Origin: an uncultured bacterium
Lineage (GTDB): Bacteria > Hydrothermota > UBA3073 > NMUJ01 > CBEVQO01
Assembly (NCBI GenBank): GCA_965552055.1
Contig: CBEVQO010000002.1
Coordinates: forward strand, 160,001-224,000
Length of the DNA: 64,000 bases
Direction: 5' to 3'
Positions 1,126-62,946 of this stretch are shown here, in pieces. The notes beneath the pieces are model-generated. The model did not search any database and was not told the DNA's origin. It saw only the letters and a program-made list of their open reading frames with translations. Position numbers and translations under genes: made by a program. How positions within the stretch are numbered: the stretch's first letter is position 1; each line of letters begins with the position of its first letter.

Positions 1126-1196
1126 AAAAATAATCATCATCTCAAATTGTCAATAGAAAATTTTTATCCTTGACAAATCAAAAATATAGTTAAAAT
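1126..1196. promoter_or_regulatory. Back-to-back divergent promoters, each TTGACA-N15-TAnnnT-N6-ATG
   Basis: Plus: TTGACA 1170-1175, TAAAAT 1191-1196, ATG 1203. Minus: TTGACA 1153-1148, TATTTT, ATG 1120. Confidence 0.7.
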
Positions 1197-1202
1197 AAAA
1201 GG

Positions 1203-2501
1203 ATGATTTTAATAGTGCTTTCCATACAATTATGGTATGGGACTTATCTCGGTAACACCAAAATAGGTTATCTGATGCAGGACATCGAAGATGTTGATAC
1301 TGCCATAATTTACAAAGAATTTTCTTTCATGAAATTAAAAATGATGGGAACGGAAAGAATTTTAACTGCCATTGGAGATTATATCTTGCAAAAAGATTAC
1401 AAAATTAAAAAGTTAAACTTTAAATTGAAATCTCTTTCTCAGGAATTAAACATTGACGGTATTTGCAAAAGGGATACTTTGTTTTTAAAAATCTTAACCG
1501 GTGGAACTTACAGGGAAAAGAAAATACCAGCAAAAGGCGGAATTTATTTACCCCATTTGATTTATACAATAGCGGTTAAAAGAAGGCAACCTGTAAAATT
1601 AAAATGCATTGACCTGACGATAATGGGAATTGACTGGGCTGAAGCAAGAATTGAGAAAAATCTGGGAGATAATACTCTTGTATGGGCTCATTTTCTTAAT
1701 GCCGAATCAAAGGCTCTTATCGATAAAGATGGATTTGTGATAAAAGAATGGGCTCCGATGAACATCGTAAATGTAAGGGAAGAAAAAGAAAAAGCACTAA
1801 AAGTTGAAGGCGCACCACCAGAAGTTTTAACATATTACGCAATAAAACCTCAAAAGAAAATTTTAAATCCAAGAAAAGTTAAATATTTGAAACTAAAGGT
1901 AAAAGGAGATTTCTTAAATACTGATAGACAAAAAGTAAAATGGTCTCTCTTTGGAAGAATACTGGAAGTAAGAGCAATAGAACCGGAAAGGGAAAATATA
2001 GGAAGGATACCCGATACTCTTCTGAAATACTTAAAACCTACGGAATTTGTGCAATGTGATGCACCTGAAATTAAACAGAAAGCATTAGAAATAATAAAAG
2101 GCGCAAAAACTGATTGGGAAAAAGTAAAGAAAATATTGCACTGGGTTGATAAAAATGTAAAAGATGTTCCTTCGGTTACAATGCCTTCGGCAATCGAAGT
2201 ATTAAAAAGTTTAAAGGGGGATTGCAATGAGCATGCGGTTTTATTCTGTGCACTCGCAAGAGCAGCAGGCATTCCTGCCGAAATAGTCGTAGGAATAGTT
2301 TACATAAATGACGGCTTCTATTATCATGCATGGAATAAAGTATGGCTCGGTAAATGGATTGAAGTTGACCCAACTTTTGGACAGGAGATTGCAGATGCAA
2401 CACATCTCGCATTACAGGAAGGGGGGATGGAAAATCAGGCAAAAATAATGGGAATCGTCGGCAAAATAAAAATAAAAGTAATAAAATATGAATATCAATA
2501 A
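1203..2501 (+). CDS. Transglutaminase-like domain protein
   Basis: GDCNEHA...RAAGIPA...YYHAWNKV...WIEVDPT, giving the Cys-His-Asp triad of the transglutaminase core. Confidence 0.9.
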   Translation: MILIVLSIQLWYGTYLGNTKIGYLMQDIEDVDTAIIYKEFSFMKLKMMGTERILTAIGDYILQKDYKIKKLNFKLKSLSQELNIDGICKRDTLFLKILTGGTYREKKIPAKGGIYLPHLIYTIAVKRRQPVKLKCIDLTIMGIDWAEARIEKNLGDNTLVWAHFLNAESKALIDKDGFVIKEWAPMNIVNVREEKEKALKVEGAPPEVLTYYAIKPQKKILNPRKVKYLKLKVKGDFLNTDRQKVKWSLFGRILEVRAIEPERENIGRIPDTLLKYLKPTEFVQCDAPEIKQKALEIIKGAKTDWEKVKKILHWVDKNVKDVPSVTMPSAIEVLKSLKGDCNEHAVLFCALARAAGIPAEIVVGIVYINDGFYYHAWNKVWLGKWIEVDPTFGQEIADATHLALQEGGMENQAKIMGIVGKIKIKVIKYEYQ

Positions 2502-2541
2502 AAGCTTGACATCCACAGAATTTGATTCAAATATAAATGAG

Positions 2542-4680
2542 ATGAACATTTTAATACTCTTCATGGGTTTGAAATTACCGGTGAAAATCTATATCGATGA
2601 TTATAGACAGATAAGAGAATTACAGAAAAAAGGTTTAATGATAGAAAATGTTATTTATAATTATGTTGAAACGCATCTTTCCAGAGAAGAAATAGAAAAA
2701 TGGCGGGAAATGGGTTATAAAGTGGAAATTACAAAAGAAGTTACTCCGAAAGCAGGTTATCATAGCTATCGGGAGATAGAAAGGAAGCTTCACTGGATTG
2801 CTTCAACTTATCCGGAAATCACCCACTTAATAAGTATAGGAAAATCAGTGGAAGGCAGGGATATCTGGGCGATAAAAATTTCGGATAATCCACAAAGTTG
2901 TGAATATGAACCGAAAGTGCGCTTCGCAGCTACTATTCACGGTGATGAACCACCCGGAACAGAAGTTTTACTCGCATTAATTGATACTCTTACAAAAAAT
3001 TACGGAAAAAATGATAAAATCACAGAACTTGTTAACACAAGGGAAATATGGATAATTCCTCTTGCGAATCCCGATGGTTATGTTAATCATTCGCGTTACA
3101 ATGCAAACGGCGTCGATTTAAATAGAAACTTCCCTGTACCAGATGGCAGTATAGGAGGTGATGGTACTTATGAACTTGAACCAGAAACTCAGGCATTAAT
3201 AACTTTTCAGGATACCGCTAACCTCACACTCGGATGTATGTTTCATACGGGTGCTCTCGTTGTGAATTACCAGTGGGATTATACCTATGATGTGCCACCG
3301 GACGATGTATTGATTGACAAAATAGCAAGGGAATATGCAAGAAGAAACCCTATGATTTATTACAGCACTTCCGTGCAAACCGCAGATAGTGGAGTGGTGA
3401 GAGGCGCTAGATGGTATATCGTAAAAGGTAGCCTCCAGGATTACAGCTATCACATAAATGGCTTTATAGATTTAACAATTGAAATTTCAGTTACAAAATG
3501 GCCCGATACCACTTTATTAAAACAAATAATTAACGAAAACATAGAACCTCTTTTATTTTTTATCGAAAAGGCAGGAGATGGACTTTATGGGATAGTTTTT
3601 GATACAGTAAATATGTGTCCTGTTATGTGCGAAATCAAAGTTGAAAATTTACAATCTGTATATTCATGCGGAAATGGGTATTACAAAAAGTTGTTATTAA
3701 CAGGAAATTACAATGTAAATTTCAGTTCACCGGGATATTATCCTGCAAGCTTTGTAATCAATGCGAATTATGACTCTTCAACTAATTTGAATGTTAAACT
3801 TACTCCATACTATAAAGATGCCTTTTTAATAGGCAAAGTTACGGACGCTTTCACAGGTGCACCTTTGCGATGCAAAGTAACAACAATTTATAGAGGAGAA
3901 ACAACAAGCACATTAACGGATGACAATGGAAATTACATATTAAAATTCTGGGAAGGAATATGGGAAAAATTAATTTTTGAAGCTACAGGTTATGAGAAAC
4001 TCTTCGAAAAATACTTTGCAGTAAAGGGGACTGTTTTCAAAAATGTAAGTTTAATTCCTTTCTTTTCGTTTTCCAGCGAAACAACAGAAACAATTCCCGA
4101 TACAAAAGTTCTTAAATCAAGGATATTTATTGCCGAAAGTTTAATGATAAAGGAAATGGAAGTATACTTACACATAAACCATCCTGATTTTTCTGAGCTC
4201 GTAATTTACATTGAATCACCTGAAGGTAAATTTGTAAAGCTCTGGGATATGAATTTTGCTACAGGAGATGTTGAAATGTGGTTCGAAAGGGATATTTCTG
4301 CAGATTCCGGCTCTTTAACATGGTATGAGAATACATGTGCAAAAGGTTACTGGACATTACACATTGAGGATAAAAAAGAAGGCAACACAGGAGTATTACT
4401 GGGATGGAAGATAAAAGTCATTCCATATTGTATTGCTGAAAAAAAGATTGCTCAACATGAATTTAAGATTTACCCCAATCCGGGAAAGAGTTTCACAATT
4501 TATTCTTCATTTACCCCCTATCTCTTTGAAATTTACGATATTTGTGGAAGGAAAATTTATTCTACAATGGTCGATAACAATTTGCAAAATTTGAATTTAT
4601 CTTTACCTGATGGTGTTTATTTTTTCAGGGCAAAGTATCCTTTGTGTGAATATTTTAAAAAGGTGGTGGTGATAAAATGA
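2542..4680 (+). CDS. M14 zinc carboxypeptidase with regulatory-like domains, proprotein convertase P-domain and T9SS-type C-terminal domain
   Basis: IHGDE, NPDG, DLNRNFP, MFHTG motifs; INHPDFSEL...GYWTLHIED P-domain; IYPNP...IYDICGR...GVYFF tail. Start ATG 2542 preferred over 2488. Confidence 0.9.
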   Translation: MNILILFMGLKLPVKIYIDDYRQIRELQKKGLMIENVIYNYVETHLSREEIEKWREMGYKVEITKEVTPKAGYHSYREIERKLHWIASTYPEITHLISIGKSVEGRDIWAIKISDNPQSCEYEPKVRFAATIHGDEPPGTEVLLALIDTLTKNYGKNDKITELVNTREIWIIPLANPDGYVNHSRYNANGVDLNRNFPVPDGSIGGDGTYELEPETQALITFQDTANLTLGCMFHTGALVVNYQWDYTYDVPPDDVLIDKIAREYARRNPMIYYSTSVQTADSGVVRGARWYIVKGSLQDYSYHINGFIDLTIEISVTKWPDTTLLKQIINENIEPLLFFIEKAGDGLYGIVFDTVNMCPVMCEIKVENLQSVYSCGNGYYKKLLLTGNYNVNFSSPGYYPASFVINANYDSSTNLNVKLTPYYKDAFLIGKVTDAFTGAPLRCKVTTIYRGETTSTLTDDNGNYILKFWEGIWEKLIFEATGYEKLFEKYFAVKGTVFKNVSLIPFFSFSSETTETIPDTKVLKSRIFIAESLMIKEMEVYLHINHPDFSELVIYIESPEGKFVKLWDMNFATGDVEMWFERDISADSGSLTWYENTCAKGYWTLHIEDKKEGNTGVLLGWKIKVIPYCIAEKKIAQHEFKIYPNPGKSFTIYSSFTPYLFEIYDICGRKIYSTMVDNNLQNLNLSLPDGVYFFRAKYPLCEYFKKVVVIK

Positions 4681-5168: not shown

Positions 5169-5170
5169 CC

Positions 5171-8014: not shown

Positions 8015-8025
8015 ACCCCCTCCTT

Positions 8026-8841: not shown

Positions 8842-8869
8842 CTTAAATTTTCGTCAAAATACAGGATTG

Positions 8870-9361
8870 TCAACTACTAATTGCATCCAATACTTCTTTT
8901 TTTGTCTTTGCAGTTAATAATTGATTTCGAACAGAATCTTCTGACATCACTTTAAAAATTTGAGCAATTAAATCAATGTATTCTTTCTCCTTATGCTCGG
9001 GTGCCAGCAACAGGAAAATAATTTTCACAGGCTTACCATCGAGTGATGAAAAATCTATACCCCTTTTATGAATGCCAAGAGCAACTTGCAATTCTTTTAC
9101 AGGCTCACCTATATAGCGAAAAATACCAACAGATTTGCCAGGACACATCGACATTATTCTATCTCGAGAAAGTATCTTCTCCAGAATAAGCTCCTTATTT
9201 TTCACAGGTAACAAATTCAAAAGCTCCCTTATTATTTTTTCTTTCGTCTTGCCTTTTAAATCCAGAATTATATTGTTGTGCAGAAGATAATTCAGTAAAT
9301 TAGAGGATGTATCTTGAAAGGTCTCTATCTTCTGCGATATTTTTGAGTCTTTCTCTGACAT
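8870..9361 (-). CDS. PTS EIIA (Ntr/fructose-type) domain protein, degenerate phospho-His site
   Basis: IILDLKGKTKEKII...GIDFSSLDGKPVKIIFLLLAP; start codon uncertain (only ATG overlaps hslU). Confidence 0.75.
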   Translation of the reverse strand: MSEKDSKISQKIETFQDTSSNLLNYLLHNNIILDLKGKTKEKIIRELLNLLPVKNKELILEKILSRDRIMSMCPGKSVGIFRYIGEPVKELQVALGIHKRGIDFSSLDGKPVKIIFLLLAPEHKEKEYIDLIAQIFKVMSEDSVRNQLLTAKTKKEVLDAISS

Positions 9362-10646
9362 AATCCGGGGTAACCTTTACTTTTTTAATTTTTGAATTGG
9401 GCAACTGATACAGTAAATCCTGGAATAACATAAACATAACCGTATGTAATCTCCTTGCACCTATATCTTCTGTTTCTCTGTTCACTTTAGCAGCAATTTC
9501 TGCAATCTCCGTTATAGCATCATCTGTAAATTCAAGCTCTACACCCTCTGTCGCAAATAAAGCTTTATATTGCTTTGTCAGAGCATTTTCCGGCTCAACG
9601 AGTATTCTTCTAAAATCTTCAGCAGTTAAAGGATTGAGTTTTACCCTTATTGGAAACCTTCCCTGTAATTCTGGCATCAAATCTGAAGGTTTTTTTGTTA
9701 TAAATGCACCTGCTCCTATAAACAAAATATGGTCTGTTTTAACAATCCCGTATTTCGTCATAACATTTGTTCCTTCAACGATAGGCAAAAGGTCTCTCTG
9801 CACACCGAGACGCGAAACATCAGGACCATGATGCTCACCTGCACCTATTATCTTATCCATCTCATCTATAAAAACTATACCAAATTCCTGAGTCCTGTAG
9901 CGCGCTTCTTCTATCACCTCATCCATATCTATTAATTTTTCTGCTTCCTCCTGCACAAAAGTTCTTCTCGCTTCTTCAACCGTTACTTTTTTCTTCTTCC
10001 TCTTAAACCCGGGGAATAAATCCGACCATAACTCTTGTAAATTAGTTGCTATCTCTTCCATGCCTGCTGGCGCAAATACTTCTATTATCTGCATGGGCTT
10101 CTCTTCTTTGCTTATCTCTATCAATTCTTTATCATATTCACCTTTTCTTAATCTTTGTCTTATTTCTTCTCGCGTCAAAATCGGTGCATCATTATCTATA
10201 TCAATTCTGTTTCTGTTTTTCTTCAACAACATATCAACAATTTTATTTTCCGCTATCTTCTCTGCTTTTTGCATTACTTCCTGTAACTTCTCAGCTTTCA
10301 CCATATTAACTGCAAGATTCATAAGGTCTCGTATCATCGATTGCACATCTTTACCGACATATCCTACTTCAGTAAACTTCGTTGCTTCAACTTTTAAGAA
10401 TGGTGCTTTAACAAGGCGTGCAAGACGACGAGCAATTTCTGTCTTACCTACTCCAGTTGGACCCATCAAAATTATATTATTCGGCATTATTTCTTCTTTA
10501 ATCCTGCCCTCCACTCTTTGTCTCCGCCATCTATTTCTTACCGCTATCGCTACCGCTTTTTTAGCCTCATCCTGACCAACGATATACTTATCCAGCTCCT
10601 TAACTATTTTCTCAGGCGTCAAATCTTCAATATTTATTTCTTTCAT
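9300..10646 (-). CDS. hslU: HslU ATPase subunit of the HslUV protease
   Basis: LTPEKIVKELDKYIVGQ, GPTGVGKT, EATKFTEVGYVG, DLSRYIL C-terminus; ATG 10646 overlaps the upstream stop (ATGA). Confidence 0.97.
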   Translation of the reverse strand: MKEINIEDLTPEKIVKELDKYIVGQDEAKKAVAIAVRNRWRRQRVEGRIKEEIMPNNIILMGPTGVGKTEIARRLARLVKAPFLKVEATKFTEVGYVGKDVQSMIRDLMNLAVNMVKAEKLQEVMQKAEKIAENKIVDMLLKKNRNRIDIDNDAPILTREEIRQRLRKGEYDKELIEISKEEKPMQIIEVFAPAGMEEIATNLQELWSDLFPGFKRKKKKVTVEEARRTFVQEEAEKLIDMDEVIEEARYRTQEFGIVFIDEMDKIIGAGEHHGPDVSRLGVQRDLLPIVEGTNVMTKYGIVKTDHILFIGAGAFITKKPSDLMPELQGRFPIRVKLNPLTAEDFRRILVEPENALTKQYKALFATEGVELEFTDDAITEIAEIAAKVNRETEDIGARRLHTVMFMLFQDLLYQLPNSKIKKVKVTPDYVRERLKNIAEDRDLSRYIL

Positions 10647-11227
10647 CTCTCCTCCCACACTTCATTTAAATTTATCTCAAAACCCCGAAGTAATTTTGAC
10701 CTCAATTTATCTTCTCCCTTAAAATGACCAAAAAGTTTATATTTCCCTTCTTCTAAATAATAAACAAAAACTTCTTTTTTGTCCGGGTCACATATCCAGT
10801 ACTCCTTTACTCCTGCCTTCTCATATTCCTTAAACTTCTCCTCTTTATCTACCTTTTCAGTACCAGGGGATATTACCTCAACTACAAGATCTGGCACATC
10901 ACAGTATTTTTCATGCAATTTCCATTTGTTTTCCTTAAGCACAAAGATAATATCGGGCTCCCTTATCTTACCTTCCCACAATCTCACAGGATAGGGTGCA
11001 AGCACAACCTTTCCTTTCTCATTTCTCTCAGCGAATTCACGCAACTTTATCGCAAGACGAAAAACCGTCTCCTGATGACGATAGGTGGGCATCGGCGCCA
11101 TGATTAGCCTCCCGTCACTCAACTCAACTATCCTGTTCGTATCTGGCAAACTGAAATACGCCTCTTCCGTCCACTCACCCTGACGCGGAAACAACTCCGC
11201 TACCTCTATCGTCAAATTACCCTTCAT
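10643..11227 (-). CDS. Uma2 family (DUF820) putative endonuclease, third copy in the operon
   Basis: [43 protein letters not shown]. Confidence 0.9.
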   Translation of the reverse strand: MKGNLTIEVAELFPRQGEWTEEAYFSLPDTNRIVELSDGRLIMAPMPTYRHQETVFRLAIKLREFAERNEKGKVVLAPYPVRLWEGKIREPDIIFVLKENKWKLHEKYCDVPDLVVEVISPGTEKVDKEEKFKEYEKAGVKEYWICDPDKKEVFVYYLEEGKYKLFGHFKGEDKLRSKLLRGFEINLNEVWEER

Positions 11228-11801
11228 AAAATATCTCGCTTAAATCTACTTCAAAACATTCCAATAACTTTGACCTCAATTTATCTTCTCCCTTAAAATG
11301 ACCAAAAAGTTTATATTTCCCTTCTTCCAAATAATAAACAAAAACTTCTTTTTTGTCTGGGTCACATATCCAGTATTCCTTTACTCCTGCCTCCTCATAT
11401 TCTTTAAATTTCTCTTCTTTATCTGTCTTCTCAGTGCTTGGTGATAAAATTTCCACAACCAAATCCGGTGTTTCACAATATTTCTCGTGTATCTTTTGAG
11501 AAAATTCTTTAAAAATAAAGAAAATATCGGGTTCTCTTATTAAATTTTCCCCTAATTTTACAGGTAAAGGGGCAATAAATACTTCTCCTATATTTTTTTC
11601 ATTTACAAAATCATCCAATATCTTGAATAAACGCTGAAGAATCCTTTGATGCTTTATTGTAGGCATTGGTGCCATGACCAACCTCCCTTTCACAAGTTCC
11701 ACTATCCTGTTCGTATCTGGCAAACTGAAATATGCTTCTTCCGTCCACTCACCCTGACGCGGAAACAACTCCGCTACCTCTATCGTCAAATTACCCTTCA
11801 T
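11217..11801 (-). CDS. Uma2 family putative endonuclease, second copy
   Basis: Same motifs; N- and C-termini near-identical to neighbours, centre divergent. Confidence 0.9.
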   Translation of the reverse strand: MKGNLTIEVAELFPRQGEWTEEAYFSLPDTNRIVELVKGRLVMAPMPTIKHQRILQRLFKILDDFVNEKNIGEVFIAPLPVKLGENLIREPDIFFIFKEFSQKIHEKYCETPDLVVEILSPSTEKTDKEEKFKEYEEAGVKEYWICDPDKKEVFVYYLEEGKYKLFGHFKGEDKLRSKLLECFEVDLSEIFYEG

Positions 11802-12378
11802 AAAATATCTCGCTTAAACCTACCTCAAAATCCTCCAATAACTTTGACCTCAATTTATCCCTTTCCTTAAAATGACCAAAAAGTTTATATTTCCCTTCTT
11901 CCAAATAATAAACAAAAATTTCTTTTTTATCTGGGTCACATATCCAGTATTCCTTTACCCCTGCCTTCTCATATTCCTTAAACTTCTCCTCTTTATCCAC
12001 CTTTTCAGTACCAGGGGATATCACCTCAACTACAAGATCTGGCACATCACAGTATTTTTCATGCAATTTCCATTTGTTTTCCTTAAGCACAAAGATAATA
12101 TCGGGTTCCCTTATTTTACCTTCCCACAATCTCACAGGATAAGGTGCAAGCACAACCCAGCCACAATCACGCTTCTTTGCAAATGAACGAAGGGCTTCAA
12201 AAAGACGAGCTACCGTCTCCTGATGCCTGTAAGTAGGCATAGGTGCCATAATTAGCCTCCCATCACTCAACTCCACTATCCTGTTCGTATCGGGTAAACT
12301 AAAATATGCTTCTTCCGTCCATTCACCCTGACGCGGAAACAACTCCGCTACCTCTATTGTCAAATTTTTATCCATCAT
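11791..12378 (-). CDS. Uma2 family putative endonuclease, first copy
   Basis: Same motifs; start overlaps the hslV stop. Confidence 0.9.
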
Positions 12379-12913: not shown

Positions 12914-12940
12914 ATTATAATCAAATAAACAAAAAGTCAA
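12914..12940 (-). promoter_or_regulatory. hslV promoter TTGACT-N15-TATAAT-N5-ATG
   Basis: Reverse complement reads TTGACT TTTTGTTTATTTGAT TATAAT AAATG ATG. Confidence 0.75.
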
Positions 12941-13299: not shown

Positions 13300-13326
13300 T
13301 TGACAAAACTGCCCTGAAATTATCAT
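13300..13326 (+). promoter_or_regulatory. Promoter TTGACA-N15-TATCAT-N5-GTG
   Basis: TTGACA 13300-13305, TATCAT 13321-13326, GTG 13332. Confidence 0.7.
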
Positions 13327-13331
13327 AAAAA

Positions 13332-14345
13332 GTGAAAATACTGATAATACAGGTGGCAGGGATTGGTGATGCAGTAATGGGCTTGCCAGCATTCAGGACA
13401 GTAAAAGAAAACAACAAAAACGCAATTCTACATCTTTTAACAACACCTCGCACGCAAAACCTTATAAAACATCAAAAAATCTTCAATAAAATATTTATAT
13501 TCGATTTGAACAGAGCAAAAAAAATCCAGAATGTAGAATACACAATAAAAAATATCTTCAATCTGATTAGAAAATTACGCAAACAAAAATATGACCTTGT
13601 TATAAACTTTTTCCGCTTGCCAACATTCTGGGGTACTTTAAGGATGCTCTTTTTCATAAAACTCATAGGAGCAAAGAAAACAGCAGGAAGAAGCCCCAGA
13701 TATAAATTTTTCGATTACACTTATGTGGAAGAAAATCCGCATGAAATCGAAAAAAATCTAAAATTGTGCGAAATACTCGGATTTAAAATAAAAGAGAAAT
13801 TACCACAAATTATAATACCAGAAGAAGCAGAAGAAAAAATCAAGAAATGGCTTTATAAAATAAATCCCCAAAACAAAATTTTAATTGGGATAAATTTGGG
13901 CGGAATGAAGCCAGCATACAGATGGGATACAGAAAATTATCGCAAATTGTGTGAAGAAATTTTGAAAAAATATGATGCAAAAATAATATTGATAGGTGCA
14001 AAAGAAGATAAAATTTATGAAAAATATTTTGAAAATTTAAATGTGATTTCTGCAATTGGCAAATTTTCTTTGATAGAAATCTGTGCACTTTTAAAAAATT
14101 TGAATTTATTGATAACACATGATAGCGGGATAATGCACATAGCATCAGCACTCTCCACACCTTTAATAGCGCTTTTGGGACCAGCACACCCATCTGTAGA
14201 ACCCGTAGGCACAGGCAAAATAATAAAAATAAGGAAAAAAGTAAAATGCTCACCCTGTAACAAAATAATATGCAAAAAAAACATCTGCATGAAAAAAATA
14301 ACATTAGAAGAAGTATTGAAACAAGTTGACATTCTGATAGCTTAA
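13332..14345 (+). CDS. Glycosyltransferase family 9 (LPS heptosyltransferase-like)
   Basis: KILIIQVAGIGDAV, ITHDSGIMHIASA, CSPC...C motifs. Confidence 0.9.
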   Translation: MKILIIQVAGIGDAVMGLPAFRTVKENNKNAILHLLTTPRTQNLIKHQKIFNKIFIFDLNRAKKIQNVEYTIKNIFNLIRKLRKQKYDLVINFFRLPTFWGTLRMLFFIKLIGAKKTAGRSPRYKFFDYTYVEENPHEIEKNLKLCEILGFKIKEKLPQIIIPEEAEEKIKKWLYKINPQNKILIGINLGGMKPAYRWDTENYRKLCEEILKKYDAKIILIGAKEDKIYEKYFENLNVISAIGKFSLIEICALLKNLNLLITHDSGIMHIASALSTPLIALLGPAHPSVEPVGTGKIIKIRKKVKCSPCNKIICKKNICMKKITLEEVLKQVDILIA

Positions 14346-14352
14346 ATAAAAT
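14326..14352 (+). promoter_or_regulatory. Promoter TTGACA-N15-TAAAAT-N5-ATG embedded in the end of the GT9 gene
   Basis: TTGACA 14326-14331, TAAAAT 14347-14352, ATG 14358. Confidence 0.7.
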
Positions 14353-24955: not shown

Positions 24956-25201
24956 CCACATATTTTAATCAACTCTCCTCAAATGTCAACAATAAATTTC
25001 AGTTATTAAAATTTCAGAAACTATTCAAAAAGAATTTCACTGCCAGCACCTATTTCTATGTAATTTTCATCAAATGCCGAACGAAAAACAGAGCGCAACC
25101 CGTAAAATAAACGCCTTCCAATATCTCACAGCAGTTATCAATTTCTACCATCTACATCGGGATTAACTTTCAAAAAGTTAAAAAGCCCCAATTTGCATTT
25201 T

Positions 25202-27411: not shown

Positions 27412-27430
27412 GATAATGATAATCATTTTC
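27412..27430. promoter_or_regulatory. Fur box overlapping the -10 of the minus-strand promoter
   Basis: GATAATGATAATCATTTTC, 18/19 to the classical GATAATGATAATCATTATC; TTGACA 27442-27437, N15, TATCAT, N5, GTG 27410. Confidence 0.9.
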
Positions 27431-27449
27431 AGAATTTGTCAAGTTTAGA

Positions 27450-27476
27450 TTGACATTTTCATGAGAAAATTATATT
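27450..27476 (+). promoter_or_regulatory. Promoter TTGACA-N15-TATATT-N5-ATG
   Basis: ATG 27482 follows 5 nt after the -10. Confidence 0.7.
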
Positions 27477-28499: not shown

Positions 28500-28526
28500 T
28501 TGACACAAAGAAAAAATGAATATAAT
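28500..28526 (+). promoter_or_regulatory. Perfect-consensus promoter TTGACA-N15-TATAAT-N5-ATG
   Basis: TTGACA caaagaaaaaatgaa TATAAT aaaag ATG (28532). Confidence 0.8.
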
Positions 28527-30108: not shown

Positions 30109-30288
30109 ATTTTACCTTGACATCCATGTATCATCACTATAATTTTATGTGAACAATCAAATCTATATATTGAACTCTCTCTCGTAGAGGTATATTTTCA
30201 TCATCCAACTTCTTAAAAGTAAGGTCTCCTCCTGATTTCAATTTATAAGATTTCGGATGCTTACCGTGTTATTCAAAAAGGGGGTGGT

Positions 30289-32988: not shown

Positions 32989-33062
32989 CATTTCATTAAA
33001 TATAATCTTTTTTAGTCGTTTGTCAAGCTAATTTTTCGAAAAATTATCGAGTGAAAAAATTT

Positions 33063-35714: not shown

Positions 35715-35733
35715 GATAATGATAATCATTTTC
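35715..35733. promoter_or_regulatory. Fur box overlapping the -10
   Basis: GATAATGATAATCATTTTC, identical to 27412-27430; TTGACA 35745-35740, N15, TATCAT. Confidence 0.9.
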
Positions 35734-35778
35734 AAAAATTGTCAAGCTGGAATTTTCAAATCTTCAAATTTTCAATTC

Positions 35779-37133: not shown

Positions 37134-37152
37134 GAAAATTATAATCATTTTC
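37134..37152. promoter_or_regulatory. Fur box overlapping the -10
   Basis: GAAAATTATAATCATTTTC; TTGACA 37164-37159, N15, TATAAT, same register as the other two boxes. Confidence 0.8.
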
Positions 37153-37236
37153 GTATTTTGTCAAGAAAAAGTTCAAAAGATAGAGTAATCGAAACATTTT
37201 AGCTTGACAAAAGAGAAAAGGTAATAAATTATAAAG

Positions 37237-38939: not shown

Positions 38940-39802
38940 TAAGTGGTAAAGGTGGCACAGGCAAAACTTCTTTTCTTGCTTCATTAGCTGTTCTTTTTGA
39001 ATCAAAAGTTATAGTTGATGCAGATGTTGATGCACCAAATCTGCACATACTTTTATCACCTCAAATTATTGAAAAGAATGAATTTTATGGAGCAGGTAAA
39101 GCAAAGATTCTGGATGATACTTGCACTTATTGTGGCAAATGCAAAGAAATATGTCCTTTTGATGCTATTTATGAAAAGGAGGGCAAATTTTTTGTAGATG
39201 AGATAAGTTGCGAAAGCTGTGGATTGTGCTATCATTTTTGTCCTTCGAACGCTATAACTTTTGAGAAAACAATTTCAGGTGAATGGTTTATTTCCGATAC
39301 TTCTTATGGTAAACTCGTTCATGCACATTTATTCCCGGGTGAAGAGAATTCCGGTTTACTTGTTTCAATCTTGCGTCAAAAAGCAGTTGAAATCGCACAA
39401 ATTGAGAATAAAAAATTTGTATTGATAGACGGACCCCCAGGTATCGGTTGCCCTGTAATTTCCGCAATAACAGGAGTTAATCTCGCAATCATCCTTACAG
39501 AACCTACTTTATCCGCCATACACGATATGAAAAGAGTTATAAATGTTTTAAGGCACTTTAAAATTCCTGCCGGCATCGTAATAAACAAATTTGATTTAAA
39601 TTTAAAAAATACAGATAAAATTTTGGAATATTGTGAAAAAGAAGGACTAAAAGTTTTTGGCAAAATCCCTTATGATGATACTGTTTATGATGCTTTACAT
39701 GATTGTAAGCCATTTATTTTTTACGATTGTAAAGCGAAAAAATCGGTAGAAGAGATTTATTCTTCTTTACAGCGCTTCTGGCAATCAGGACAGATACCAT
39801 AA
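38921..39802 (+). CDS. MinD-superfamily P-loop ATPase with inserted 2x[4Fe-4S] domain
   Basis: SGKGGTGKT, DADVDAPN, two ferredoxin motifs, ENSGLLV, DGPPGIGCP. Confidence 0.92.
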   Translation: MYQIVVISGKGGTGKTSFLASLAVLFESKVIVDADVDAPNLHILLSPQIIEKNEFYGAGKAKILDDTCTYCGKCKEICPFDAIYEKEGKFFVDEISCESCGLCYHFCPSNAITFEKTISGEWFISDTSYGKLVHAHLFPGEENSGLLVSILRQKAVEIAQIENKKFVLIDGPPGIGCPVISAITGVNLAIILTEPTLSAIHDMKRVINVLRHFKIPAGIVINKFDLNLKNTDKILEYCEKEGLKVFGKIPYDDTVYDALHDCKPFIFYDCKAKKSVEEIYSSLQRFWQSGQIP

Positions 39803-40170
39803 AATTGAAAAGTATGGGTTTGTATCTCAAAGCCGTATTTTTCTTTTAGATTTTCTTCGATTTTTTTAACGAGCTCTGTTTCTTCTTTTATAAAATCGGA
39901 GTAATCAATAATTTTACCGCATACTTGGCAAATTAAATGATGGTGATGTTCACCTTTAGCATACTCATATCTTGCCTGACCATCGCCCATTACGAATTTC
40001 CTCAAAATGCCATTTTTTGTAAGTAATTCAAGTGTCCTGTAAACGGTGGAAAGCCCTATTTTTGGACATTTTTCCTTAACCTTCATAAAAATTTCAAGAG
40101 CTGTGGGATGACCTCCTAATCCCTTTAACACCTCAAGAATTAAGAGCCTTTTTTGAGTCAGCCTCATCAT
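39757..40170 (-). CDS. fur: Fur-family transcriptional repressor
   Basis: RLTQKR, HPTALEI, IGLSTVYRTL, HHHHLICQVCG, YGICPDC; start ATG 40170 or 40167. Confidence 0.93.
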   Translation of the reverse strand: MMRLTQKRLLILEVLKGLGGHPTALEIFMKVKEKCPKIGLSTVYRTLELLTKNGILRKFVMGDGQARYEYAKGEHHHHLICQVCGKIIDYSDFIKEETELVKKIEENLKEKYGFEIQTHTFQFYGICPDCQKRCKEE

Positions 40171-40173: not shown

Positions 40174-40237
40174 ATTATAATCCATAAATGAAAATGTCAA
40201 GAAATGAAGCTTGACAAATTGAGGATTGTGTTATAAT
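40174..40237. promoter_or_regulatory. Divergent fur / ATPase promoters, both TTGACA-N15-TATAAT
   Basis: Minus TTGACA 40200-40195; plus TTGACA 40211-40216 with TATAAT 40232-40237 and ATG 40245. Confidence 0.75.
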
Positions 40238-46164: not shown

Positions 46165-47394
46165 TTATAACGCAATATCTTTACGATAATGCATTTTTTC
46201 GAATTTTATCTTTGAGATTTCTCTATATGCTTTTTCTCTTGCTTTTTCAAAATCTTTGTCAATTGCGACGACGCTCAAAACCCTTCCACCTGCTGTCAAA
46301 ACTTTATCGCCTTCTTTTTTCGTACCAGCATGAAATACAATTGCATCTTTCACATCGTTTAAACCTTCGATTTCAAACCCCTTCTCATATTTCCCCGGGT
46401 AACCTCCTGATGCTGCTACCACGCACACAGATTTTTCGTCTTTGAATTTTAAATTTATTTCTTTCAATCTTTCTTCAATTGTAGCAAGGATAGCTGGCAT
46501 GATGTCTGATTCAACGAGTGGCAGAATCGCCTGGGTCTCAGGGTCACCAAATCTACAGTTGAATTCAAGCACTTTTGGACCTTCTTCTGTTATCATCAAA
46601 CCCACATACAAAATGCCTTTATAAACTGCTCCCTCTTTTTTTAAGCCCCATATTACGGGTTCTGCTATCTTTTCAATTATTTCTTCGGGATTTTTTAGAT
46701 GGGGTGCAGGCGAGATAGAGCCCATACCCCCTGTATTTGGTCCTTCGTCTCCATCATAAAGCCGCTTATAATCCTGAGCTGTGGGTAACATTACAAAATC
46801 TTTACCATCGGTGAAACAGAAAAATGATGCTTCGTAACCTTCGAGATACTCTTCAATAACCACTTTCTCTCCTGATTTTCCAAGAACCTTATCAATCATT
46901 AATTCTTTAATTTTTTTCTTCGCTTCTTCTTTATCTTTTACAATAAAACTTCCTTTGCCCGCTGCCAATCCCGCTGCCTTTATCACAATGGGTGTTTTAA
47001 TCCCATCAATATATTTTATTGCATCATCATAATTTGTGAAAGTTTTAAATTCGGGTATCGGTATATTTAATTTTTTGCACAATTCTTTTGCGAATGCTTT
47101 ATCCGACTCTATCGTTGCAGCTTCTTTTACCGGTCCAAAACCTTTACCTTTTGGTATCTCATTTATTATGCCTTTTGCAAGAGGGTCTTCCGGTCCCACG
47201 ATTAAAAGATCAACTTCTTTTGCAAATTTTAAAATTTTTTCTATATCATCTGGTGGGATATCAAGGCATTCTGCTTCTTCGCACATTCCTGCATTTCCCT
47301 GCGTTACATAAATTTTGTCAACAAGCGGGCTTTGTTTTATCTTCCACAAGATTGCATGTTCCCTTCCACCTTTGCCAACAATAAGTACTTTCAT
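46165..47394 (-). CDS. purD: Phosphoribosylamine-glycine ligase
   Basis: GKGGREHA, VGPEDPL, GPNTGGMG, EFNCRFGDPE, TAGGRVL. Confidence 0.97.
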   Translation of the reverse strand: MKVLIVGKGGREHAILWKIKQSPLVDKIYVTQGNAGMCEEAECLDIPPDDIEKILKFAKEVDLLIVGPEDPLAKGIINEIPKGKGFGPVKEAATIESDKAFAKELCKKLNIPIPEFKTFTNYDDAIKYIDGIKTPIVIKAAGLAAGKGSFIVKDKEEAKKKIKELMIDKVLGKSGEKVVIEEYLEGYEASFFCFTDGKDFVMLPTAQDYKRLYDGDEGPNTGGMGSISPAPHLKNPEEIIEKIAEPVIWGLKKEGAVYKGILYVGLMITEEGPKVLEFNCRFGDPETQAILPLVESDIMPAILATIEERLKEINLKFKDEKSVCVVAASGGYPGKYEKGFEIEGLNDVKDAIVFHAGTKKEGDKVLTAGGRVLSVVAIDKDFEKAREKAYREISKIKFEKMHYRKDIAL

Positions 47395-48017
47395 TTTTCC
47401 TCCATCTCCTTTAAACATTCGCTAACATTTACGGGATTAGCAAGCCATTCAACATTTATGAAAAAGCCATTTATCTCTCTTGAAAAAACTTTGCCTTCTT
47501 TAAATTTTTTCTCTTTGTAATTTTCATCCCTGTGATAAAAGTAGATTTCAAGGTTATCGGGGTCGATGAACCACATCTCTTTAACTCCATATTGTTTGTA
47601 TTTTTCCTTTTTCTCAATCAAATCATAATTTTTAGTCCATGGCGATAAGATTTCGATTACAGCATCAGGACATCCTTCAAAATATTTGTCTTTTATTTTA
47701 TCAGTATTCTCATTTTTCACAAAAATAATATCGGGCTCAAAAACATCAAAATCCGATAACTTTACAGCAAACCTTGAACCAAGCACTTTTCCAAGTTTAT
47801 ACTTTTCGGTAAATAATCGCAATAAAGAATAAACAAAGCCAAAAAGTTCCTCATGCTTATAAGAGGCAGGCGATTTACAGATTAATTCGCCGTTCATGAG
47901 TTCAAAATTTGAATCTTCGTTTGTTATGATGAAAAATTCTTTTGCACTCATTCTTGGAATTTTGATAAGAAAAGGTTTTTTCACCTCTTTACCATCCACA
48001 AAAACTTTTATACTCAT
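47391..48017 (-). CDS. Uma2 family putative endonuclease (fourth, divergent copy)
   Basis: ELMNGELICKSP...H, EPDIIFV, PDAVIEILSP, GVKEMWFIDP. Confidence 0.88.
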   Translation of the reverse strand: MSIKVFVDGKEVKKPFLIKIPRMSAKEFFIITNEDSNFELMNGELICKSPASYKHEELFGFVYSLLRLFTEKYKLGKVLGSRFAVKLSDFDVFEPDIIFVKNENTDKIKDKYFEGCPDAVIEILSPWTKNYDLIEKKEKYKQYGVKEMWFIDPDNLEIYFYHRDENYKEKKFKEGKVFSREINGFFINVEWLANPVNVSECLKEMEEK

Positions 48018-48022: not shown

Positions 48023-48093
48023 ATTATAATTCAACATTAAAAAAGTCAACATTATTTTTAAAAAACTTGACAAACTTCTATCTTAATTATAAT
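48023..48093. promoter_or_regulatory. Divergent promoters TTGACT-N15-TATAAT (minus) and TTGACA-N15-TATAAT (plus)
   Basis: Minus -35 at 48049-48044 with ATG 48017; plus -35 at 48067-48072, -10 at 48088-48093, ATG 48100. Confidence 0.75.
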
Positions 48094-48234
48094 ATCCCGA
48101 TGAAAGGAATGATTTTCATTGAAGTTTGCGTAATTTGGAAGATGGGGGCACATTCTAAAATCATAAGTAGATTTTATCCTATCCTATCCTTGGTACTTTA
48201 GTGAAAGCGTACCCTGGAGGCGTAAATTTATTTA

Positions 48235-51420: not shown

Positions 51421-51447
51421 ATTATAATCTGGCTGTTGAAAAGTCAA
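51421..51447 (-). promoter_or_regulatory. Promoter TTGACT-N15-TATAAT-N5-ATG
   Basis: Reverse complement reads TTGACT TTTCAACAGCCAGAT TATAAT TAAGG ATG. Confidence 0.75.
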
Positions 51448-51486
51448 TGGATATTTATTGACACAGAATTTGATTTTGATGGGGTG

Positions 51487-52443: not shown

Positions 52444-52486
52444 ATGAGAAAAGGTTGACAATTTTTCATAATATATATTATTTATG

Positions 52487-53974: not shown

Positions 53975-54029
53975 AAAATTTTTTCTTGACATTCGTAGAA
54001 ATATATTTATAATTTAAAATAAGGAGGGT

Positions 54030-59760: not shown

Positions 59761-62289
59761 GCAGGAGTAAGATATGACCACGATGTAGGAGTAGTGAAAG
59801 CAACATTTTTACCAGAAATCTGCGCAAAGAAGCAACAGGATACGATAAAAATAAAAGTAATAAATTACGGGAAAAATGACGAAACCTTTGACCTTGTTAA
59901 AATAGTGAAAAAACCTTCAGGACAAATAGATTATTGCGATACTACAAAAGGAATATTCTTAAAATCATACAAAGATACTTTTATCATGTTTTGTTACACA
60001 CCGGATACATTGGGAAAACATCCGGTTATCGCAAGGGTAATATTAACGGATGAAAATCCAGCGGATAATGAAATTGTGGATACTCTAAATGTAACATTTC
60101 CCGACATTTATGGATGCTGTAAAATAGGAGGGGATGGAATAGCGGATGTTGGTGAGGATAGTGTAGAATTAATTATAACGCTTGTAAATGATGGTGCTTA
60201 TGCTTATTGTGTTTCATGTTCGCTTTCGGAGAATGAGGAAAATGCAGAGTTGATAGGAACTGCAAAGCAAACCTATGGAGATATTCCATATAAAGGTGAA
60301 GCAAGTAAGAAATTCATGTTCAATGTGCTAAATACTGCAAGCGATGGAGAAATTTTAAGCTTTATTCTACACATAAAGGACACAATGGGCTATTACGCAC
60401 AGGATACGGTCAACATCATGGTAGGAGGTAAGAAATGGACAATTATGGTCTACATTATAGGAGATAACAACCTGGGAGATGTTGTTAATGGCGATATTGA
60501 TGAGATGGAGAGTGCTGGTTCCGATGAAAATATAAATATTCTTGTGCAAATAGATGGCAACCCATCTTATACTTATAATGATCTAAGCGGAGCAAGGAGT
60601 GATGCAAATAGATATTACATAGAGAAAGGGAACAGCAGTAATGATACGATAGACGCATATCCTGTTGTTAGCCTCGGAGAAATAAATTCCGCTGATACTT
60701 CAAATATATTCTCTTTTGTTAAGTGGTGTATCGACAATTATCCTGCAAAATATTATGCATTTATCCTGTGGAACCATGGTAGTGGCTGGCAGAAGGCTGC
60801 TGGAGTAAAAGGAGCCGGATGGGATGACACCGAAGGAGATATGCTTGGAATATCAAATGGCGAATTGCGTGCATTATTAAGGAAAATTAAAAATTACCTC
60901 GGAAGGAATATCGATATACTGGGATTCGATGAATGCCTTATGTGTATGATGGAAATAGCATCAGAAGCAATGGGATATGTTAATTACATAGTAGCATCCG
61001 AGCCGGGGATACCAATCGAAGGATGGGATTACACATTCCTGCAAGACCTTAAAAATAACCCCAATATGACACCAAGGGAACTTGTTAACAAAATAGTTAA
61101 AAAATATGGAGAATATTACTCCACATCTTCAAGTGTAAACCTTAACGCACTGGATATCGGTCATAGTTTTCAGAAACTATGCTGGGATGTAGATAAACTC
61201 GCAATAGAATGCCTGAAAGAAGGAGGAATGAATAACTCACAAATACAAAATGTGGTTTCGAACCTCCAAGGTTTAATAGAATCATGGTCACCCTATGATA
61301 ATTATGTCGATATATTAAGGCTTGCTACTGATTTAATGGGGCAAAATATTTCCAGCGGGATAAATGCTGCTTGCGACTCCATTATAAGTCATTTCGGATA
61401 TCCACCTTATCAGGAGGGTATGCCTTTATGCACCACATGGTGCTCATCCGATATGTCAGGAATAACTTACGGAATGATGATAAATTGTCCCGATGACGGA
61501 AGCGGTTTATCAGGAAACTGGGAAGACCCATACGATTACAGATGGTTAAAATGGGCTAAAAATTCAGCATGGTACTACTTTATCGCACAATACAATTCAT
61601 TACCCGATACAATAATTCTATCCTATATCGGGAACTCTTTCATCGATGAAGATGGCGATACAGTGCCAGAAATGGGAGAACAGGTAGAAATGGATATAAA
61701 AATCAGAAATAGCGGGGCTAACACTGCCTACGCAACATGGGCAAGATTATACTCGGAAGACCCACAGATAACAGTCCTGAATGATAGCTGCTATTTCGGA
61801 GATATACCAGGTGATACCGAAGTAATATCCAGAAATAGAGTAAAAATATTAATAGGGTCAAAATGCCCATACGGATATAGAGCTACTTTGAAATTAGAAA
61901 TTCATGCACAATCTCAAAAATCAGAATATATATCCGAAGCATTTATAATTTTCGATGTCGGTATAACAAAAGGTGATTTCCCGCCTTACGCCATCACATC
62001 AGCACCCATTACCCGTGCATACATGAAACAAAATACACCTAACCCATTCGCCGAATTTACAAAAATCGAAATAGGAATACCACAGAAACAAAACTTCATT
62101 CTAAAAATTTACGATATAACAGGAAGATGCGTGAAAACTTATCACTACAAATCAGCATCACCTGGAATATACACCATTAAATGGAATGGCACAGATAACA
62201 GAGGAAGAAAATTACCAGCAGGAATATACTTCTGCAGATTACAGACAAAGGATAAAATAATTACAAGAAAAATGGTAAAAATTAGATAA
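57619..62289 (+). CDS. Secreted clostripain (C11) peptidase with adhesin/CARDB modules and FlgD/T9SS CTD
   Basis: WTIMVYIIGDNNL, LWNHGSGW (His), GFDECLM (Cys); N-terminal modules paralogous to the upstream gene. Confidence 0.9.
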   Translation: MKWLCALLLFVGTGLGATVIIEEDFEDMFPPAQWDTVPVSGSDYGWVWGDGSSGGDPDNAYSGSKYARFYSYLSSDGYEEDLITDTFDLTSVANCTLSFYYINEYDNTSPPGKDWVKVYYSVDSGKSWVELDSLGIKDAWTHFEYALPDSKIIMIKFRGHSDYGYTNPCIDLFRIKGQIAHNIAVKSLSLSHDAIPPNYTLTITAVIKNKGTSNESNVPVYCWIKNPSDSIVFGDTVTIGELKSDSDTVITWNYGDATEHGDYTVIVKANLSNDAYHNDDKKEESFHCMEIQNMPWSYGFEEIPFPPCGCWKIYNFDGGDQWEQTSDDAHSGNFSVYCRYDIPNNDWLILPPIIAKSNNDTLIFWYRARSSWGTEHFNVRLATGVTTDTSQYSIIWDTSTTATEFQQKKIVLSTLIPGDTFRIAFHYDSDNEYGIYIDDVEFKKGKVYNNDVAVTSVSCKPVAVETSEVETVTARVLNAGYNDQSNFKVKIYVVSPSSDTLFRDSANIGLLTSFSDTTLQWMVTGYTEHGDHIVYVKTCLSGDENPYNDMKSSYFHVKGKIIAPWSEGFEGTTFPPCLCWTDVYGNWKRYEDPSYAHSGAGYAHIDYDVSEGEGILITPTIDAGYFDTLIFWWKEADYKGKDIGHDSTFVEISKDNGTTWIVWKVLKVEHSSTWYAETLIFGENCGPEVKIRWRYQTDRSYSAYGFNLDDIELKAGVRYDHDVGVVKATFLPEICAKKQQDTIKIKVINYGKNDETFDLVKIVKKPSGQIDYCDTTKGIFLKSYKDTFIMFCYTPDTLGKHPVIARVILTDENPADNEIVDTLNVTFPDIYGCCKIGGDGIADVGEDSVELIITLVNDGAYAYCVSCSLSENEENAELIGTAKQTYGDIPYKGEASKKFMFNVLNTASDGEILSFILHIKDTMGYYAQDTVNIMVGGKKWTIMVYIIGDNNLGDVVNGDIDEMESAGSDENINILVQIDGNPSYTYNDLSGARSDANRYYIEKGNSSNDTIDAYPVVSLGEINSADTSNIFSFVKWCIDNYPAKYYAFILWNHGSGWQKAAGVKGAGWDDTEGDMLGISNGELRALLRKIKNYLGRNIDILGFDECLMCMMEIASEAMGYVNYIVASEPGIPIEGWDYTFLQDLKNNPNMTPRELVNKIVKKYGEYYSTSSSVNLNALDIGHSFQKLCWDVDKLAIECLKEGGMNNSQIQNVVSNLQGLIESWSPYDNYVDILRLATDLMGQNISSGINAACDSIISHFGYPPYQEGMPLCTTWCSSDMSGITYGMMINCPDDGSGLSGNWEDPYDYRWLKWAKNSAWYYFIAQYNSLPDTIILSYIGNSFIDEDGDTVPEMGEQVEMDIKIRNSGANTAYATWARLYSEDPQITVLNDSCYFGDIPGDTEVISRNRVKILIGSKCPYGYRATLKLEIHAQSQKSEYISEAFIIFDVGITKGDFPPYAITSAPITRAYMKQNTPNPFAEFTKIEIGIPQKQNFILKIYDITGRCVKTYHYKSASPGIYTIKWNGTDNRGRKLPAGIYFCRLQTKDKIITRKMVKIR

Positions 62290-62778
62290 TCGTAAATAAA
62301 AAGCAAGAACCAGAAGCAAAACTTCCAGTGTGTAATACAAAATTCTGGGTATCTTATAAACCTTCAACGGAAAAAGAATTGGAGTTATACCCGTATCCGC
62401 ATCCCTTATCACATGAGAAGAAATCGCAAAAAATGAAATAAAAGAAAGTTTTAAACTCTTCGAAAAAAGATAAAAAATAAAAGATAAAAACAATGCAAAA
62501 GTAATGCTGTGAGTATAGGGTCTGAGAGGCAAAGAAGTTGCCTTCTCCAAAGAGAAACTCCTTGCTACAACAAAATGGTCAAAATCAAGAAGAAATGCCA
62601 ATAAAAAAGAAAAAATTATATCAAATAAAGAAGAAGCAAGAGGAAGACAAATAATAAGAGAAATCACACCATGAGAAAAAGTATCAAGCAAAGACCTGTA
62701 AAGCACATTTTTAACTCTCAAAAAAATATAATCAGAAATTAAAAGCATCAAAATCAAAGCAAAAAATAATTTTATCAC
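62239..62778 (-). CDS. Membrane metal-dependent hydrolase (YdjM / TMEM267-like)
   Basis: DTFSHG, LDFDHF, RPYTHS, SHVIRD; GTG start 5 nt after TATAAT of a promoter with TTGACA at 62810-62805. Confidence 0.7.
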   Translation of the reverse strand: MIKLFFALILMLLISDYIFLRVKNVLYRSLLDTFSHGVISLIICLPLASSLFDIIFSFLLAFLLDFDHFVVARSFSLEKATSLPLRPYTHSITFALFLSFIFYLFSKSLKLSFISFFAISSHVIRDADTGITPILFPLKVYKIPRILYYTLEVLLLVLAFYLRLSNFYHFSCNYFILCL

Positions 62779-62817
62779 AAGTTATTATAACAGAAATGAA
62801 ATTTTGTCAAATTTTTT

Positions 62818-62892
62818 GCCCCTCCTCCCTATCCCCACCGCCCTCGCTCACAACCCACATGTAATTGGCTCGGCTACGCCGAGCATTAAAAT
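62818..62892. repeat. Short copy C of the intergenic repeat family (both ends, no central insert)
   Basis: gcccctcctccctatccccacc...caacccacatgtaattggctcggctacgccgagcattaaaat. Confidence 0.75.
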
Positions 62893-62946
62893 TTTTTCTT
62901 GACATTCTCTATTTTTGATTAAAATTGTAAATTTAAAGGAGGGGTC

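Follow-up and report, generated by a model that had tools for sequence, protein, structure and literature searches.

Which distance between the -35 and -10 boxes is used by the housekeeping promoters of an uncultured bacterium of the WOR-3 group? The question was raised by a stretch of 64,000 nucleotides of its genome (contig CBEVQO010000002.1, positions 160,001 to 224,000; here called the window, with positions counted from its first letter). For canonical sigma70/sigmaA promoters a spacer optimum of 17 +/- 1 bp is given in the accessible parts of two papers (PMC8695583, PMC12641261). The preliminary description of the window had listed 24 promoter-like sites, 21 with a spacer of 15 bp, three with 16 bp and none with 17 bp, and had proposed that promoter geometry is shifted by 2 bp in this lineage. 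All 24 sites were recovered at their coordinates and with their spacers. Twenty of the 21 15-bp sites fit TTGAC(A/T)-N15-TAnnnT, the 21st being the accD site (-35 box at 8873, minus strand), which has GAAAAT as its -10 box. The three 16-bp sites (-35 boxes at 24989 and 33026 on the minus strand and at 53986 on the plus strand) were borne out as well. In the window the N15 pattern occurs 20 times against 2.22 +/- 1.46 expected, and none of 100 dinucleotide shuffles reached 20. The N17 pattern gave five matches (2.09 expected), all of them 15-bp sites in which the same TTGACA was re-read two bases off, and the reported absence of 17-bp sites was thus upheld.

The same spacer prevails in the whole genome that contains the window (G000; 2.23 Mb, 36% GC, 97% complete). 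Perfect TTGACA/TATAAT pairs numbered 7 at 14, 121 at 15, 27 at 16 and 7 at 17 bp. With the window excluded, 114, 26 and 7 pairs were left at 15, 16 and 17 bp, and locally shuffled DNA gave a flat histogram. In an unbiased profile of the DNA that follows 556 intergenic TTGACA hexamers, TATAAT emerged at a spacer of 15; the same profile for 1262 TTGACA hexamers in coding DNA gave no signal. Selection only for a -10-like hexamer at 5 nt from a downstream start codon gave 189 sites, of which 112, 11 and 0 had TTGACN at 15, 16 and 17 bp. A mixture model fitted by expectation maximization to 755 intergenic TTGAC sites returned shares of 0.86 (15 bp), 0.10 (16 bp), 0.02 (14 bp) and 0.00 (17 bp), which apply to the 70% of these sites that have a -10 box. 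Of 74 intergenic sites that seem to have a 17-bp spacer, 50 are 15-bp sites shifted in reading by two bases. The genome-wide histogram named as a check in the preliminary description, set against shuffled DNA and against relatives, therefore has its peak at 15 bp and none at 17 bp, and the proposed 2-bp shift stands as a property of the lineage.

The -10 matrix learned from G000 (T97 A98 (A49/T47) A85 A78 T87) describes a TATAAT-type hexamer, and the flank upstream of the promoters is A/T-rich. The promoter-like motif that predominates upstream of mRNA and transfer RNA (tRNA) genes in G000 and in its order is TTGACA-N15-TAWAAT. An artefact can hardly account for it, whether a faulty assembly, chance matches in AT-rich sequence, or repeats or repressor sites resembling promoters. 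The GC content of 36% and a Fur-box-like palindrome overlapping three of the window sites would favour such an explanation, but the excess in the window (20 against 2.2), the flat shuffled histogram and the spacer sequence, which differs from site to site, argue against it. So does an independent assembly of a near-identical strain, in which the spacers are the same (19 of 25 sites are letter-identical), and so does the phasing of the start codon 5 nt downstream: of the RTG (ATG or GTG) triplets at a gap of 5 past the -10 box, 153/190 are in frame.

The position of the motif relative to genes was examined for both kinds of transcript. TTGACA lies within 50 nt upstream of 26 of the 47 tRNA and transfer-messenger RNA genes of G000, and the best-fit spacer in these promoters is 15 bp in 23, with 16, 17 and 19 bp in one each. 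From the start of the -35 box to the mature tRNA 5' end, as placed by ARAGORN and possibly off by one, there are 32-36 nt in 21/26 and 32-34 nt in 10. In these ten genes the canonical layout of 35 nt would start transcripts inside the tRNA. The tRNA genes are almost devoid of a 5' leader; in most of them 6-9 nt separate the -10 box from the mature end. Among 384 intergenic 15-bp promoters, an in-frame ATG or GTG was present at 5-6 nt in 176 (about 46%), which look leaderless, and a Shine-Dalgarno-led start in 65 others. Within the bounds that tRNA ends and start codons set, transcription is predicted to begin 5-6 nt past the -10 box, which would yield many leaderless mRNAs, and many mRNAs of this organism are probably of that type. 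Together, the 15-bp spacer and the close tRNA ends and start codons imply that the promoter as a whole is shorter than the textbook form by about 3 bp. Within the window, an in-frame ATG or GTG follows the -10 box by 5-7 nt at 16 of the 21 15-bp sites; at the other five a Shine-Dalgarno-led start at 18-21 nt (three sites), a 145-nt leader (one) or no open reading frame (one, at 48067 on the plus strand) was found. The genes behind the window sites include accD, hslV, purH, a V-type ATPase operon and a Fur-family regulator. Judged by sequence and placement, the N15 sites very probably act as working housekeeping promoters.

Distribution of the 15-bp spacer among WOR-3 relatives

Order, class and phylum are used here as ranks within WOR-3, the phylum being deduced from the named members of the nearest RpoD cluster and of the short-sigma cluster of the sister family, which carry the label candidate division WOR-3. 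G000 is the sole member of its family, and the same order holds one sister family with three genomes (G001, G070 and G152). The density of TTGACA-N15-TAnnnT was surveyed in 262 genomes that are at least 70% complete, rates being counts divided by rounded genome sizes. G000 reached about 187/Mb and two genomes of the sister family 71-74/Mb; none of the other 259 exceeded about 26/Mb. Only one small WOR-3 order follows the 15-bp rule, with 3/262 surveyed genomes and a fourth, less complete one. Perfect pairs at 15 bp number at most 11 in each of 150 other genomes of the phylum. The -10 box of the sister family is TAnnTT, so that this family is invisible to a strict TATAAT pattern and the TAnnnT pattern was required. 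With the latter, its three genomes gave 99/46/26, 89/35/20 and 62/27/14 sites at 15/16/17 bp, with 11-19 in reversed-pattern controls; 16 bp is used more often than in G000.

Scoring at all three spacers covered 56 genomes, several of which had too few perfect sites for a call. Within the same class, family f4 uses 17 bp strictly, with 128-237 perfect pairs at 17 bp and at most 6 at 16 bp in 8/8 genomes. Families f17, f24 and f27 use 16 bp (3/193/15 pairs at 15/16/17 bp in G017 and 2/214/24 in G066). Family f3 had been taken for a 15-bp family by the strict pattern (11/3/0) and was rejected as such, since its overall counts of 69/205/178 are those of a 16-17-bp family. A minor regulon of the short sigma factor in relatives gained no support either: the 15-bp TATAAT sites of f3 precede no coherent stress regulon, and 13/27 sites (5 genomes) can also be read as 17 bp. 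Perfect TTGACA/TATAAT pairs with spacers of 15, 16 or 17 bp are almost lacking from four genomes (G032, G058, G078 and G088), which may use another consensus. Searched for in metagenomes, the divergent double-15 pattern was found at 15 loci, nine of them from the near-identical strain and six isolated and without further excess. Two viral scans gave seven single matches and none, respectively. The 15-bp rule is one evolutionary event, the related genomes being kin and not independent cases.

Relatives were also compared in the spacer sequence itself. In G000 it is biased to T-16 G-15 A-14 T-13 (59/49/57/65%), which shifts the TG step upstream by one base relative to canonical promoters. The 17-bp genome G065 has the canonical T-15 G-14, G017 with its 16-bp spacer shows the G000-type bias, and the sister family has none. 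Such a bias could point to a standard holoenzyme assisted by a general helper (activator or nucleoid protein) able to stretch or kink the spacer, or to extra melting upstream of the -10 box. This is considered very improbable, as the bias is weak, absent from the sister family and present in a 16-bp genome, and no common operator was seen over hundreds of promoters.

Sigma factors, 6S RNA and candidate causes

The RpoD of G000 (575 aa) is encoded after dnaG and contains regions 1.1, 1.2, 2, 3 and 4 according to Pfam, with a score under the TIGR02393 cut-off (284.8 vs 354 bits). A second, short RpoD-like sigma of 265 aa has regions 1.2-4 only, without region 1.1, and lies in an htrA-sigma-M23 peptidase unit, the neighbours of which were labelled by inspection. 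The remaining sigma factors are a FliA-like one and smaller ones. Compared with 27 WOR-3 RpoDs, the G000 protein diverges most strongly in region 2.4-3.0, where its mean identity is 0.40 against 0.55-0.62 for the 27 relatives. This region is one residue shorter than in all 27, and the 3.2 linker is 2-3 residues longer; in sum, the protein has a 1-aa deletion and two insertions relative to these relatives. The equivalents of W433, W434 and Q437 and the region 4.2 helix are retained. Those of R441, V454 and E458, located with the offsets of PMC4593229, are K, P and N. According to Table 3 and the accessible text of that paper, these three residues touch positions -14/-15 of the duplex and show 100% conservation among 1002 primary sigmas. 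A search for related loci with RpoD returned only 5 distant ones.

In the sister family RpoD was not found, either by protein search (3/3 genomes) or by a region 2 profile (2/2). In the two genomes the profile detected only a 275-aa ortholog of the short sigma, with regions 1.2-4 only, and one extracytoplasmic function (ECF) sigma. The dnaG gene was found in two sister genomes, and in both the gene after it on the same contig encodes a DUF4159 protein. We infer by elimination that the 275-aa RpoD-like sigma reads the 15-bp promoters of this family. In G000 the short-sigma ortholog or the altered RpoD would do so, and probably both do: the intact RpoD has no 17-bp class to serve, which implies that it probably reads 15-16-bp promoters as well, next to the short sigma or in second place to it. 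In trees of regions 2-4, from which G070 and G152 were left out as near-duplicates or partial, the G000 RpoD had the longest distance to the outgroups among 14 class members (1.43 vs 1.00-1.36). The short sigmas of G000 and G001 were the second and third shortest of 14, and the pieces of the core polymerase were ordinary.

A second trace of change was found at the locus of 6S RNA, which mimics an open promoter and binds the holoenzyme of the primary sigma. The 6S family RF00013 matched in 18/18 other members of the class and in 0/4 genomes of the order. The 6S gene of two of the three inspected relatives has zapA and rny as its direct neighbours; in the third a zapA-like open reading frame takes the place of zapA. 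The zapA-rny site of G000 contains an 83-nt hairpin (G000:C2:320597-320679, fold z -5.6) that aligns with both ends of the 6S RNAs of the relatives. The closing stem is kept, and about 55-60 internal bases, comprising the 5' strand of the bubble and the whole upstream arm, are missing. RF00013 did not match this remnant, and a nhmmer profile of WOR-3 6S RNAs found it at E=9 only. In the three sister genomes the zapA-rny gap is about 43 nt, and 6S RNA is gone from its usual locus. The decay of the promoter mimic parallels the change and the loss of RpoD.

The reading favoured here, and held to be rather more probable than its opposite, is that an everyday promoter is read by a polymerase with a re-gauged sigma, the -35 and -10 contacts of which would lie 2 bp closer together. 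Loss of the duplex contacts of the R441/V454/E458 type upstream of the -10 box would let sigma4 with the flap and sigma2-3 dock on a shorter spacer. Freed from these major-groove contacts, the spacer might sit differently and sigma4 on the flap might move closer. The TG step at -16/-15 instead of -15/-14 hints at the same shift.

A number of observations weigh against the re-gauged sigma. It is derived from comparison of sequences, and the link between sigma and spacer is one evolutionary event in four related genomes, those of the sister family being 99, 87 and 66% complete. That family uses 15-16 bp and not sharply 15, with 15/16 shares of 0.67/0.30 in G001 and 0.45/0.49 in a 216-kb subset of G070 and G152. 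The difference in RpoD rate, 1.43 against 1.00-1.36, is modest. Three 16-bp genomes (G004, G007 and G050) have fully canonical RpoD residues and others have A454/D458, which means that residues 441, 454 and 458 do not set the spacer one-to-one. The linker lengths of the short sigmas do not follow the spacer. In G126 (family f33, 95% complete) only the short sigma was matched at E<=1e-30, and there is no 15-bp excess. RF00013 was missed in 17/33 genomes of other classes as well, so that a miss alone says little and synteny decides. A recombinant of RpoD and short sigma was also considered and rejected: whichever window of the alignment was taken, the G000 RpoD had RpoD and not the short sigmas as its closer match. 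This too speaks against the reading.

Two of these genome groups deserve mention in their own right. Seven RpoDs with A/D at the V454/E458 equivalents (L026, L027, L028, L030, L034, L036 and L037) all come from 16-bp-dominant genomes and form one clade. The single short sigma of G126 may represent a further loss of RpoD, or an assembly gap.

A different cause would be the core RNA polymerase, if its flap, beta' zipper, zinc domain or clamp set the rule by holding sigma4 nearer to sigma2-3, with the sigma changes and the 6S decay following. One spacer despite very different sigmas (a 575-aa RpoD in G000, a 275-aa protein in the sister family) would be explained by a shared core. The beta' zipper has an E to D change in all four genomes of the order, and RpoB groups the two families (FastTree support 0.877), with three substitutions found only there. 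However, the zipper D is also present in the 16-bp genomes G017, G066 and G061, the three substitutions lie outside the flap, core branch lengths are ordinary, and the aligned segments of flap, zipper/zinc domain and clamp show no indel relative to 25 relatives. The indel comparison was limited to these parts of the core enzyme. We regard a core origin as unlikely, if worth keeping in mind. The preliminary description had suggested a search for indels in RpoD and the RpoB flap; small ones were found in the former and none in the latter. The rpoB and rpoC genes lie on different contigs in the sister family (G001:C18/C31, G070:C62/C115) and are adjacent in G000 and most relatives.

Finally, overwound DNA in a thermophile with reverse gyrase could make 15 bp equal to 17 bp for an ordinary polymerase. 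Reverse gyrase is present in 3/3 genomes of the order that were searched and in 0/17 other members of the class, and protein composition points to about 68-78 C (a rough IVYWREL estimate), so the organism is probably heat-loving. Yet reverse gyrase also occurs in 29/131 genomes of other classes, including the 17-bp genomes G068 (1/6/42) and G006 (1/1/12) and the 16/17-bp genome G010, and a motif search found both gyrA and gyrB in G000. Calculated with standard helix values, 2 bp correspond to about 70 degrees, 7 Å and some 13% extra twist, which is far above physiological supercoiling, and heat itself unwinds DNA. In Escherichia coli libraries spacer length was minor for supercoiling sensitivity, as far as the accessible part of PMC8695583 reports. 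DNA topology is thus a most unlikely cause. Of the three causes named in the preliminary description, the sigma factor has correlative support, the beta-flap has no indel and topology fares poorly.

Promoter sites and neighbouring genes in the window

In the following, distances are counted from the end of the -10 box and strands are given as + or -. The first divergent pair consists of TTGACA-N15-TATTTT at 1127..1153 (-), with an in-frame ATG at 3 and 6 nt, and TTGACA-N15-TAAAAT at 1170..1196 (+), with the ATG of a transglutaminase-like gene (1203-2501) at 6 nt. At 8847..8873 (-) TTGACA-N15-GAAAAT precedes the accD ATG at 5 nt, and at 12914..12940 (-) TTGACT-N15-TATAAT precedes hslV, with ATG at 2 and 5 nt. 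Next come TTGACA-N15-TATCAT at 13300..13326 (+), with the GTG of a heptosyltransferase-like gene at 5 nt, TTGACA-N15-TAAAAT at 14326..14352 (+), with the ATG of a GH57 glucanotransferase at 5 nt, and TTGACA-N16-TAAAAT at 24962..24989 (-), with an ATG at 6 nt. A second divergent pair is formed by TTGACA-N15-TATCAT at 27416..27442 (-; GTG at 5 nt), the -10 box of which is overlapped by a Fur-box-like palindrome, and TTGACA-N15-TATATT at 27450..27476 (+), with the ATG of a radical SAM gene at 5 nt. The perfect TTGACA-N15-TATAAT at 28500..28526 (+) has an ATG at 5 nt; after the one at 30117..30143 (+) the next open reading frame follows a 145-nt leader. TTGACA-N16-TATATT at 32999..33026 (-) has an ATG at 7 nt. 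Shine-Dalgarno-led starts at 18 nt belong to TTGACA-N15-TATCAT at 35719..35745 (-), with a Fur-box-like palindrome on its -10 box, and to the perfect TTGACA-N15-TATAAT at 37138..37164 (-), which has a Fur-box-like site and serves a pyridine nucleotide-disulphide oxidoreductase gene.

Further downstream, TTGACA-N15-TAAATT at 37204..37230 (+) has an ATG at 6 nt. Two perfect TTGACA-N15-TATAAT sites follow: the one at 40174..40200 (-) precedes the Fur-family regulator gene, with ATG at 3 and 6 nt, and the one at 40211..40237 (+) the V-type ATPase operon, the first gene of which starts at 7 nt. TTGACT-N15-TATAAT is found at 48023..48049 (-) and 51421..51447 (-), each with an ATG at 5 nt. The perfect TTGACA-N15-TATAAT at 48067..48093 (+) has no ATG/GTG open reading frame of at least 60 aa within 200 nt. 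TTGACA-N15-TATTAT at 52455..52481 (+) precedes purH, with ATG at 2 and 5 nt, and TTGACA-N16-TATAAT at 53986..54013 (+) a Shine-Dalgarno-led start at 16-19 nt. The last two sites are the perfect TTGACA-N15-TATAAT at 62784..62810 (-), with a GTG at 5 nt, and TTGACA-N15-TAAAAT at 62899..62925 (+), with a Shine-Dalgarno-led start at 21 nt.

The palindrome AATGATTATCATT, which we take to be Fur/PerR-box-like, overlaps the -10 box of three promoters of iron-sulphur/redox genes (27415-27427, 35718-35730 and 37137-37149, minus strand). It has six matches against 0.83 expected, another copy being located at 48108-48120; the gene of the Fur-family regulator is at 39757-40170 (-). Three tandem Uma2-family (PF05685) genes of 194-195 aa occupy 10643-12378 (-), between hslV and the gene of an AAA+ ATPase that is likely hslU, and a fourth Uma2-family gene is present at 47391-48017.

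Outside the window, a separate 17-bp class at CRISPR leaders and ribosomal RNA (rRNA) genes was considered and dropped, these sites being read equally well as 15 bp with TATAAA. Just past the promoter, the leaders of CRISPR arrays and the rRNA promoters carry CTCTTTGAA/TTCTTTG, presumably boxA-like (G000:C1:379337 (+), C1:340322 (-), C6:20570 (+), C5:32513 and 32580 (+)). The second rRNA promoter is ambiguous, with 14 bp (TAATAT) or 17 bp (TATAAT), and its spacer is perhaps deliberately off-optimum.

Relation to known promoter systems

Short spacers are familiar from alternative sigma factors: sigmaS tolerates 15-19 bp, and sigma32, sigma28 and sigmaB are further examples. As may hold for the short sigma described here, they combine a spacing other than 17 bp with the lack of region 1.1; they use other boxes or an extended -10 element and control small regulons, whereas here canonical hexamers serve hundreds of units including tRNAs. 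The 16-bp WOR-3 families share the hexamers and a family-fixed spacer other than 17 bp; they differ by one base, and RpoD and (where found) 6S RNA are retained. Canonical sigma70/sigmaA promoters of E. coli and of the 49 species with mapped transcription start sites in PMC12641261 are, in the accessible text, alike in hexamers, A/T-rich flank and placement before housekeeping and tRNA genes. G000 differs from them in its optimum of 15 bp (10% at 16 and none at 17 bp), in the start codon, mostly 5 nt past the -10 box, and in the TG step one base upstream.

In Bacteroidota the primary sigma was replaced by sigmaABfr, which uses a TTTG/TAnnTTTG promoter (PMC7366714, as far as accessible). In the three incomplete sister-family assemblies no classical RpoD was found, which would resemble this replacement; a short RpoD-like sigma is the apparent primary one there, and the -10 box is TAnnTT-like. 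Two Bacteroidales sigmas were aligned and left out of the tree. Unlike Bacteroidota, the order keeps TTGAC and shortens the spacer instead of using TTTG/TAnnTTTG, and the G000 RpoD is intact though altered. In the WOR-3 order, housekeeping transcription might have passed from RpoD to a short sigma a second time and independently, with the boxes kept and 15 bp measured between them. The sister family would have completed this transfer, and G000, with its remodelled RpoD and stripped 6S RNA, would be midway. We put this forward tentatively, at slightly less than an even chance. In the literature searched, mostly outside subscription journals and in part as partial texts, no paper on promoters of WOR-3 or on a housekeeping optimum of 15 bp turned up. 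The accessible main text of the 49-species survey (PMC12641261) contains neither 'WOR-3' nor '15 bp'; data relevant to the claim may lie in its spacer figures for single species and in its supplements.

Promoter models take the 17-bp spacer for granted, and it is seen as an almost universal constraint on the sigma70 holoenzyme. The use of the same hexamers at 15 bp for tRNAs and core metabolism indicates that this ruler can shift by about 7 Å and 70 degrees. The promoters of this lineage would escape promoter scans as well as metagenomic expression in E. coli. Should sigma prove to carry the preference, an orthogonal promoter set for synthetic biology would become available. The WOR-3 families fixed at 15, 16 and 17 bp form a natural series, in which swaps of sigma and core can test what sets spacer length.

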